Assembly: GCA_951406725.2 (NCBI GenBank)
Contig: OX597831.1
Coordinates: 42,904,001 to 42,968,000, forward strand
DNA: 64,000 nucleotides
Direction of reading: 5' to 3'
Source: Octopus vulgaris
Taxonomy: Eukaryota
Positions 12,562 to 19,464 of the stretch are shown piece after piece (position 1 is the first letter of the stretch; each line of letters opens with the position of its first letter). The translations under genes and the position numbers were made by a program. The notes beneath the pieces are model-generated. The model saw only the letters and a list, made by a program, of their open reading frames with translations. It was not told the DNA's origin and did no database searches.

Positions 12562-12593
<32 letters not shown>

Positions 12594-12594
<1 letters not shown>

Positions 12595-13440
12595 AAATCC
12601 TTAAATCTTTAAAAATGTTTCAGCCTGAAAGCTGCACCCATGCTGGGGCACCACCGTTGAATGTTTGAATGTGCTACACTAGTATGTGAAACCACCTCTG
12701 ATACGTGGTACTTGGTCAACATGGGAGTTCGATGCCGCTGCCCGCATCTATGTTTCCTGCTGAGAGGTAGGTTCATCTGGAACCCCTGACAAGAAGAGAT
12801 CCTGTTTAGTTTTAAAGAAACTCACATCCACACCATGCAGGTCTCTCAGGCAATTAGGAAGGATATTGAAGAGCTGTAGTCCCCTAAAACCCAAGCTGTT
12901 GCAGTATCTGGTCCTGTATTTTGATGGTGATGCTGGGATCTTTGGCACCATGCAGTGGCGCCCCGTTCTGCTGTTGGGGTAACTTTCAATGCCAAAATTC
13001 GGGACAAGACCCTCCAAGATTTTCCAGATGTATATCACTGCATATCTGTCCCACCTTCGCTCCAGGAAGAAGTGTTTATATACTTTCAGTCTTTCCCAGT
13101 AGCTGATATGCTGCATTGAGATGATCTTCTTAGTGTAGCTTCGTTGGGTTACTTCGAGTTCTGCTGTTAACTTTATATTATGTGGTGACCATAGTTGGGA
13201 GGAGTAGTCCAAGCAGCTGAGGACGAATGTCTTCCAAAGGACCATCAGTGTCTCCTTCTCTCTTGTTCTGAAAGTTTGGAGGATCCATCCAGCTAGCCGT
13301 CTGCATTCTATTACCAAATTGGCAATATGCACTTGGAAAGATGCATCATTGCTCATGTCAATGCCCAGGTCACACACTGATTTTGACTCAGGAATTTCAA
13401 TTCTTCCCGGGCCAGTGTATCTGGTCTGCATGTCGTTCAT
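12594..13440 (-). mobile_element. 5'-truncated CR1/L2-group LINE (RT C-terminal region and 3' tail)
   Basis: ORF 12748-13440: [36 protein letters not shown]; (TAAGGATTT)-like tandem tail at 12594-12612. Confidence 0.9.
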
Positions 13441-13588: not shown

Positions 13589-13900
13589 CATATATATTTA
13601 CATATATACATATTTGCATACATTTTATATATATAAATATATATATATATATATAATACATATATATATTTACATATATACATATTTGTATACATTTTAT
13701 AGATATAAAGATATATATATATATATACATATTTACATATTTGCATACATTATATATATTTCTTTCTTTCCTTTCCTGAGCGTCCAAAACACTATACTTG
13801 TTCCACGTCCTCGCGTTGTGTTTTCTCTTTGTTCATGTTTGGAGTAACTATATATACATATTTACATACATTATATATCTATATATTTACATCTCCCCCC

Positions 13901-13941
<41 letters not shown>

Positions 13942-14115
13942 CATATTTACATACATTATTTATATATATATATATATATTTACATACATTATATATATAA
14001 TAATAATGAGGCAGAATGCTAAACTGAAAGCAAATTTTAATATAAATGGGTGCAAAAAAGATTAAAAAAGGAAATCAAAAATATGGAACGCTTCACAAAT
14101 TTGCATGTCATCCTT

Positions 14116-14222
14116 GTACTCGCTACTGCGGTACATATTCTAAAATTGGAACAATACAGAGAAAATTAGCATGGCTCCTGCGTAAGGATGACATGCAAAT
14201 TCGTGAAGCATTCCATATTTTT
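14116..14222 (+). pseudogene. U6: Full-length (107 nt) diverged U6 snRNA copy inside a fold-back insert (13997-14303)
   Basis: gtactcgct..gcggtacatattctaaaattggaacaatACAGAGAaaattagcatggctcctgcgtaaggatgacatgcaaattcgtgaagcattccatattttt is colinear with metazoan U6. The upstream flank is an inverted copy of its own 3' end rather than a PSE/TATA promoter. Confidence 0.93.
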
Positions 14223-14369
14223 GATTTTTCTTTTTTAATCTTTCTTACACCCATTTACATTAAAATTTGCCTTCAGTTTAGCATTATGCCTTATTATTAT
14301 TATGTTTTCCTTTCCTATCATTTCTCCACATGCTCTTAACACAACCCCACCATTTACTGATCTATATAT

Positions 14370-14859
14370 ATATCCTTAAAATCCTTAAAAATGTTTTAGC
14401 CCGAAGGCCGCGGCCAAGCTGGGGCACCACCGCTGAATGAGCTACACTAATTTGTGAATCAACCTCTGATACGTGGCACTTGATCAACAAGGGAGTTCGT
14501 GCCCGCATCCGCGTCTCCTGTCGTGAGGTAGGTTCATCTGGGACTCCCGACAAGAAGAGATCCAGTTTAGTTTTAAGGAAACCCACATCCACACCATGTA
14601 AGTATCTCAGGCATTTAGGGAGGATGTTAAAGAGCTGTGGTCCTCTGAAACCCAAGCTGTTGCAATATCTGGACCTGTATTTTGATGGTGATGTTGGAAT
14701 CCTTGGCACCATGCAGTGGCACCCTGTTCTGCGGTTGGGGTAACTTTGAATGCCAAAGTTTGGGACAAGACCCTCCAGGATTTTCCAGATGTATATCACC
14801 GCATATCTCTCCCGCCTCCACTCTAGGGAGAAGAGGTTTAATACCTTCAGTCTTTCCCA

Positions 14860-14861
<2 letters not shown>
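14370..14861 (-). mobile_element. Second 5'-truncated CR1/L2-group LINE 3' end, same family as 12594-13440
   Basis: ORF 14362-14799 [33 protein letters not shown]; same tandem tail. Confidence 0.9.
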
Positions 14862-14890
<29 letters not shown>

Positions 14891-15106: not shown

Positions 15107-15322
15107 AATATGTACATACATATATATATATACATATGTACATACATATATACATATTTGCATACATTATATATATTTCTTTCTTTCCTTTCCTGAGCGT
15201 CCAAAACACTATACTTGTTCCACGTCCTTGTGTTGTGTTTTCTCTTTGTTCATGTTTGGAGTAACTATATATACATATTTACATACATTATATATCTATA
15301 TATTTACATCTCCCTCTCTCTA

Positions 15323-19464
<4,142 letters not shown>

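Follow-up and report, generated by a model that had tools for sequence, protein, structure and literature searches.

U6 snRNA copies joined to the 3' ends of Penelope-like elements at predicted hammerhead cleavage sites in the Octopus vulgaris genome

The feature described here, located in a 64,000-nucleotide stretch of Octopus vulgaris DNA (assembly GCA_951406725.2, contig OX597831.1, positions 42,904,001 to 42,968,000 of the forward strand; hereafter the window), is a fusion of a U6 snRNA copy with the final 140 nt of a Penelope-like element (PLE), inserted in the way that PLEs insert. The tail is of PLE origin, and the U6/PLE junction coincides with the cut predicted for a hammerhead ribozyme in U6-free relatives. 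We regard it as probable that the insert is a one-off chimeric retrocopy for which the hammerhead cleaved the PLE RNA, an RtcB-type ligase joined mature U6 to the product, and PLE enzymes inserted the result into a (TA)n tract. The window copy itself, which has no promoter, is most likely a dead pseudogene, and the interest likely lies in the record of ribozyme activity in vivo held by the set of comparable loci, not in this single dead copy. The parts of the insert and its flanks, with the basis for each assignment in brackets, are as follows.

13920-13996, no strand: degenerate (TA)n tract at the left end, the target microsatellite (tandem repeat 13920-13999 of period 2; sequence).
13997-14076, minus strand: inverted arm, PLE part, the opening ~80 nt of the PLE 3' fragment in reverse complement (alignment; U6-free copies with a similar arm).
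14077-14115, minus strand: inverted arm, U6 part, the reverse complement of U6 nt 69-107 (BLAST).
14116-14222, plus strand: full-length U6 snRNA retrocopy (Rfam RF00026; comparison with the array gene copy L035).
14222-14223, plus strand: U6/PLE junction at the parent's predicted hammerhead cut, with zero added bases (parent alignment; motif anatomy).
14223-14317, plus strand: 3' terminal region of a Neptune-type PLE (part of the pseudo-LTR), starting with the 3' strand of hammerhead helix I (genome search; upstream ORF remnants; Pfam).
14318-14362, plus strand: ~45-nt extension on one arm only, the true element end (sequence; a PLE hallmark described in PMC8557442).
14363-14373, no strand: (TA)n at the right end, the target microsatellite (sequence).

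An earlier sequence-only reading of this DNA had proposed a complete 107-nt U6 preceded by its own inverted 3' end and tail, joined at U6 nt 1, and these proposals are confirmed. The U6 copy, the sole gathering-level Rfam match within the window, aligns to RF00026 over model positions 1-105 of 105 (102.3 bits), ends in five T, and is identical to L035 at 99 of 107 positions. The inverted arm (13997-14115, 119 nt) pairs with 14184-14303, with 110 of 119 aligned bases identical and one gap; the arm spans U6 nt 69-107 together with the opening ~80 nt of the tail and meets U6 at nt 1. When U6 is compared with the locus by BLAST, 39 nt of this arm match at 95% identity, and the PLE part of the arm ends ~14 nt short of the usual end of the short arm in this tail family. 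The long hairpin that had been foreseen has a predicted stability of -157 kcal/mol (z -24.8), matched by none of 100 shuffles. Because the arms differ by 8%, a fold-back artefact of reads or assembly appears disfavoured, and because the inverted arm includes U6 sequence, U6 would have been attached before or during insertion. The sequence also agrees with the reported TA-rich left end and absence of promoter and poly-A: neither a promoter-like flank nor poly-A is found in the sequence flanking the window U6, and the upstream flank of the array genes is absent from this copy. Likely U6 genes form a tandem array at C1:139.42-139.43 Mb, in which a TATA-like box lies within a common upstream region, and L362 is probably a U6 gene standing alone, of a second sequence variant.

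The tail (14223-14362) corresponds to the last 140 nt of a PLE. It had been called unique and said to end in (TTA)n. Neither description survives: a genome search yields 687 first-look candidates, with 40 scored at 84-100%, and the tail runs to about 14362 before giving way to (TA)n at 14363-14373. The 30 tail loci that were fetched represent 28 distinct places, two of which carry U6. Many of the U6-free copies have an inverted short arm on the left, a longer arm with the extra ~45 nt on the right, and TA at both ends. Broken frames upstream in the longer copies (ORF remnants in L006, L019, L025 and L002) contain reverse transcriptase (RT), thumb-like, zinc-linker and GIY-YIG sequence. Pfam GIY-YIG scores 23.3 bits in L019 (cut-off 22.6) and 23.0 bits in L147, with no match in the L002 and L152 pieces; three short RT pieces from L006 gave no match to the Pfam RT family, and the PLE RT was assigned by eye. 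Moreover, a C-x4-C-x2-C linker lies upstream of GIY-YIG in L019 and L152 and fits the CX2-5CxxC linker that, according to PMC8557442, is shared by Neptune and Nematis. That paper names truncated copies in inverted orientation, an extension on one side, a bias towards TA and this linker as traits of Neptune/Nematis-type PLEs. Judged from sequence, the parent of the tail is therefore a PLE with a Neptune-type linker, the clade label being drawn from the linker and the traits. The same four features point to a PLE-type insertion of U6 together with the PLE 3' end, and the earlier suggestion of Penelope-like machinery is thus upheld. A U6/LINE chimera was considered and rejected, given that the partner is a PLE and the ends lie in TA tracts, in place of a LINE site with target-site duplication.

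U6-free copies of the tail carry a variant minimal hammerhead directly upstream of it, and the predicted cut falls at the U6 junction. We read the motif with the NUH rule and hammerhead position numbering; the family labels T1-T7 and the SINE labels used below were coined here. In T1A/B, which includes the window's own subfamily, the motif consists of a short helix I strand, a U3-A8 core, helix II, GAAA and a palindromic helix III, with the cut after TTT. Helix I has 3-5 bp (3 bp in the window's subfamily), and the G10.1-C11.1 pair is U-U in T1A/B and present in the sister subfamily T1C. Tested for a core 3-9 with 3-8 paired, GAAA, the NUH triplet, a palindromic helix III and a helix I that closes at the cut, T1A/B fits a minimal type I hammerhead. 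A scan of 13 T1 3' regions for the canonical CTGANGA found no intact canonical hammerhead, the variant being read by eye, and no Rfam hammerhead family is among the matches listed (150 of 236 Rfam rows). The earlier statement that no hammerhead is visible in the tail is literally true, yet it misses that the tail starts with the 3' strand of helix I, the 5' part having been replaced by U6. Minimal type I hammerheads, including the U3-A8 variant, are described from PLE pseudo-LTRs in PMC4209133, which reports low in vitro activity and notes that in vivo support is lacking; PMC8557442 likewise calls their function still unclear. The window copy alone proves nothing about cleavage, as the motif is atypical and up to three T of microhomology are present at the junction in this family. 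Because the TTT at the junction could represent T-microhomology with the U tail, a genome-wide test of U6 fold-backs was made.

The prediction that junction and cut coincide was fixed from the window's family before other parents were read, and the exact U6 fold-back pattern used in the search is blind to the sequence following U6. The whole-genome search returned 10 loci (control, 0). Each of them lies between TA flanks and has both an inverted arm and a tail rich in AT, and they fall into eight tail families or subfamilies. U6-free parents (11-13 per family, and 29 loci for T1A/B) have a hammerhead directly upstream of the junction point in eight of eight families, and the junction lies exactly at the predicted cut in nine of the 10 fold-backs. 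The tenth, L103, is either in register with one mismatch at +2 or else 2 nt downstream with seven U. Moreover, T2, T3, T4 and T6 cut after GTA or GTC, so that six loci (L098, L099, L100, L107, L104 and L106) have no T microhomology. The T4 hammerhead is canonical, with a helix I of 6 bp, C3-G8 and a cut after GTA (L100, L107). The remaining cores are U3-A8 in T2, T3, T6 and T1C, A3-U8 in T5, and G3-C8 in T7, and the GAAA box is altered in T5, T6 and T7. Pair 3-8 of the core is Watson-Crick in 59 of the 64 parents that keep the core, 83 having been examined. A descriptor scan landed on the junction itself in 36 of the 83 parent loci and within 1 nt of it in two, with four off-junction matches on the sense strand and 20 on the other strand in 145 kb; the descriptor was composed after the motifs had been seen, and it missed T7 entirely. 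U6 in the chimeras ends mostly in five T, compared with six to nine T in the array genes.

Further chimeras came from searches built on known junctions and stand outside the 10-locus count. L063, L072, L306 and L307 join at the cut, L066 does so with one extra T, and L064 (C25) joins ~14 nt downstream of the cut, as read. Longer T runs lie a few bases downstream in the tail and are unused in five of six T1-type chimeras. An unbiased sample of U6 3' ends was taken from the first 100 of 293 exact matches; leaving out seven array genes, four clustered copies and five already-known fold-back entries, it comprised 84 ends in 83 loci. About 76 of these 84 ends, read by eye, are joined to SINE or LINE modules through spacers that vary; the same holds for most of the 30 U6atac loci and for 15 of the 16 dispersed 7SL copies. 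The sample added L394, the tail of which starts with the helix I complement of a 72%-identical relative in L026, and L405, a U6 fold-back with a short arm, no TA flanks and a partner left without assignment. L405 and the off-site L064 count against the fixed-cut reading. PLE-type chimeras thus make up ~5-6 of some 87 non-array U6 loci. BLAST labels of 'PLE' within the sample were rejected, being SINEs in the flanks of the reference loci. Exact 3'-end matches number at least 293 for U6 versus 28 for 7SL (14 of them dispersed), and the 28 include no 7SL fold-back, with ~0.5 expected from the 10 per 293 of U6, so that this control is without power.

Dispersed U6, U6atac and 7SL copies are in general mostly fused at their 3' ends to SINE starts or to short SINE/LINE end modules with few spacer bases (L032-L090, L276-L305, L321-L420). 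Single loci of other kinds include L357, a head-to-tail U6-U6 retrocopy, and L347, in which a tRNA-like sequence, a truncated U6 and the start of a second U6 form one chain. In addition, a tandem array of 7SL genes lies at C5:143.07-143.12 Mb.

The partners found at a given cut bear on how the joining took place. For T6, 40 matches have a changed base before the cut. Sixteen are point or small-indel variants of the element, and in 10 the element is joined, at the cut or close to it, to an inverted stretch of itself, a class that we excluded from the evidence because it lacks a neighbouring-position control. U6 accounts for three matches (two loci), U6atac for one (Rfam 80.6 bits, ending at the cut), a tRNA-SINE 5' fragment with an inverted arm for one (L241), and another hammerhead's 5' half, which stops at the cut predicted for that hammerhead, for three (two apparently independent loci, one of them duplicated); six matches have no assignment. 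The tRNA-SINE fragment is not among the RNAs known to carry a cyclic phosphate. The foreign hammerhead is part of a tandem repeat of ~358 nt (259 exact genome matches), the native 3' partner of which pairs with its helix I; the T6 tail fails to do so. Of the six foreign partners that were identified, five are thus U6, U6atac or a hammerhead 5' product ending at its own cut, and none is U1, U2, 5S, 7SL or a mature tRNA. The ends of U6, U6atac and the retrozyme 5' half are all known or predicted to be cyclic phosphates. Of the eight changed-base matches at T4, four are U6 (two loci), one is a partial duplicate nearby, one is a point variant, and two are direct truncations.

The cut-to-cut joining of this retrozyme-like repeat to a PLE tail (L218, L219 and L239; family in L258-L275) is a direct link between retrozymes and PLEs. 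In two other T6 loci, L244 and L253, a ~50-nt insert sits directly at the cut; its branch-point-like sequence, pyrimidine tract and AG make it possibly an intron remnant. Seven T6 copies (L223, L225-L229 and L252) have G at the cleavage position, normally cleavage-dead, which suggests a small subfamily that spread without cutting.

Hammerhead cleavage leaves a 5'-OH. In the mechanism that we propose, PLE RNA would cleave itself at the hammerhead, probably as a dimer, to give a 3' fragment with such an end, and mature U6 bearing a 2',3'-cyclic phosphate would be ligated to it by an RtcB-type ligase. The fragment would retain the 3' end recognised by the PLE RT and endonuclease and could be copied into a TA tract, with the inversion point falling inside U6. 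The position of the junctions makes hammerhead cleavage in vivo, in the germ line, very probable; given cleavage, ligation of U6 to the cut fragment appears likely. The architecture of the insertion is visible at the loci, and we infer that PLE enzymes carried it out. Biochemical precedent exists for the joining step, since RtcB is described as joining U6 with its cyclic phosphate to 5'-OH RNA, and U6atac as ending in the same group (PMC6789731), and RtcB circularises hammerhead-cut retrozyme RNA in vitro (PMC7229834). More generally, we lean slightly towards the reading that PLE hammerheads, among them those with A3-U8 or G3-C8 cores and a changed GAAA box, cut RNA in germ cells, that RtcB joins any cyclic-phosphate RNA (U6, U6atac, other ribozyme products) to the cut end, and that PLE enzymes fix the product.

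Cleavage might also have taken place with no ligase involved, the PLE RT running off the 5' end of the cut fragment and jumping to the 3' terminus of an unattached U6. PMC4476161 explains U6/LINE-1 chimeras by template switching. End-jumping would give identical junctions and, like ligation, requires that the hammerhead cut; the LINE/SINE route, moreover, has often attached sequence to the 3' ends of U6, U6atac and 7SL in this genome. 7SL, which has no cyclic phosphate, is similarly fused, so that a U6 partner alone does not prove ligation. The U6 cap should block RtcB from making U6-U6 joins, and such joins exist. These observations, together with the SINE fragment at the T6 cut in L241, keep end-jumping a live rival, albeit one that we consider doubtful. 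What tells against it is that hammerhead junctions have no spacer, whereas SINE-route chimeras have variable ones, and that the T6 partners are so largely confined to U6, U6atac and hammerhead 5' products. We favour ligation over end-jumping because the joints have no spacer, U6 mostly ends in five T, and cyclic-phosphate RNAs account for five of the six identified T6 partners.

A template switch at microhomology, from the U tail of U6 to TTT, with the hairpin acting only as a pause site, would account for the window copy without any cleavage. The T runs shared at the junction in T1 (up to three) and in T5 (two), the atypical motif of the window's subfamily and the off-site L064 are in keeping with this idea, but six loci in four families are exact without T microhomology and the longer downstream T runs are mostly passed over, which makes it very improbable. 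Smaller still is the probability that we assign to a U6-headed SINE, to transcription reading through a U6 gene, or to a genuine U6 gene changed at the DNA level by insertion or fold-back. The full-length U6 at the 5' end would suit them, two loci each share the T4 and the T6 junction, and real read-through copies do exist, as in L059, a U6 retrocopy with about 30 nt of true gene 3' flank. The window tail, by contrast, differs from the 3' flank of the likely U6 genes in the C1 array and has hundreds of U6-free copies, no upstream gene flank is present, and the loci with a common T4 or T6 junction differ in fold-back point and, for T6, in tail subtype as well. The U6-headed SINE and the read-through transcript, both raised by the earlier reading, are largely refuted, as are the DNA-level options; U6 at two of 28 tail places and the differing tails and fold-back points of the chimeras speak against the SINE. 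An snRNA-headed SINE was rejected because the 10 fold-backs have eight tail families and differing inversion points, and the junction search yielded few like copies. Since the chimeras carry different tails and fold-back points, they are independent one-off events, not an amplified family.

The closest known systems are the U6/LINE-1 chimeras of PMC6789731 and PMC4476161, which, as described there, also join a U6 3' end of about five T to the 3' part of a retroelement, also use U6atac, and are also inserted by the partner's machinery. They differ in having an L1 site and target duplications, in place of the PLE partner, (TA)n target and inverted arm seen here. Moreover, the L1 study (PMC6789731) detected no specific junction sequence and leaves the nuclease undefined, whereas the junction here is fixed to the nucleotide at a predicted ribozyme cut. 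The PLE pseudo-LTR hammerheads of PMC4209133 resemble ours in the type I motif near the 3' end, the short helix I and the palindromic helix III, and the U3-A8 core variant of Cercyon elements occurs here too; what is added here to that description are A3-U8 and G3-C8 cores, changes in the GAAA box, and genomic products by which the cut is marked. Neptune/Nematis-type PLEs (PMC8557442) share the zinc-finger-like linker, GIY-YIG, TA bias, inverted arm and one-end extension, but here the inverted insertion carries a captured snRNA. Animal retrozymes (PMC7229834; bioRxiv 10.64898/2026.07.22.740005) are described as hammerhead-cut RNAs with RtcB-compatible ends and proposed PLE mobilisation; the window copy, unlike them, is a single non-tandem chimera without an intact hammerhead of its own. 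The literature searched, which did not extend to subscription journals or Repbase/Dfam notes, yielded no account of U6-PLE chimeras or of U6 junctions defined by a ribozyme.

In eight tail families the bond predicted to be cut is marked by U6 with single-nucleotide precision. This is difficult to account for if no cleavage took place, and the set therefore bears on whether minimal animal PLE hammerheads cut in vivo. Each junction also supplies an exact and cheap prediction of a cut site, unusual catalytic cores included. The proposed mechanism would provide a defined origin for the 5'-OH end, which the ligation model for U6/L1 lacks, and would extend small-RNA capture from LINEs to PLEs. If true, the broader reading would give PLEs a general route to capture host RNAs and to swap ends with retrozymes and with each other, and genomes could be used as a fossil ligation assay, in which ribozyme activity and cut sites are readable from sequence alone.

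Elsewhere in the window, very long microsatellites at 16553-16611 and 16912-19153 include an AC tract of over 2 kb and T runs of 28-59, and may include assembly error. Two 3' ends of a LINE-like family lie on the minus strand at 12595-13420 and 14374-14862, the second being that of the unrelated element that, by translation, lies beyond 14373. Another short repeat is present in two copies (13750-13999 and 15167-15428), and together with the LINE-like ends it mimics a local duplication. A flanking target duplication, which had seemed a candidate from the similarity of 12585-13099 to 14360-14860 (84%) and of 13750-13999 to 15167-15428 (92%), was accordingly rejected, these being two copies each of the LINE-like end and the short repeat.
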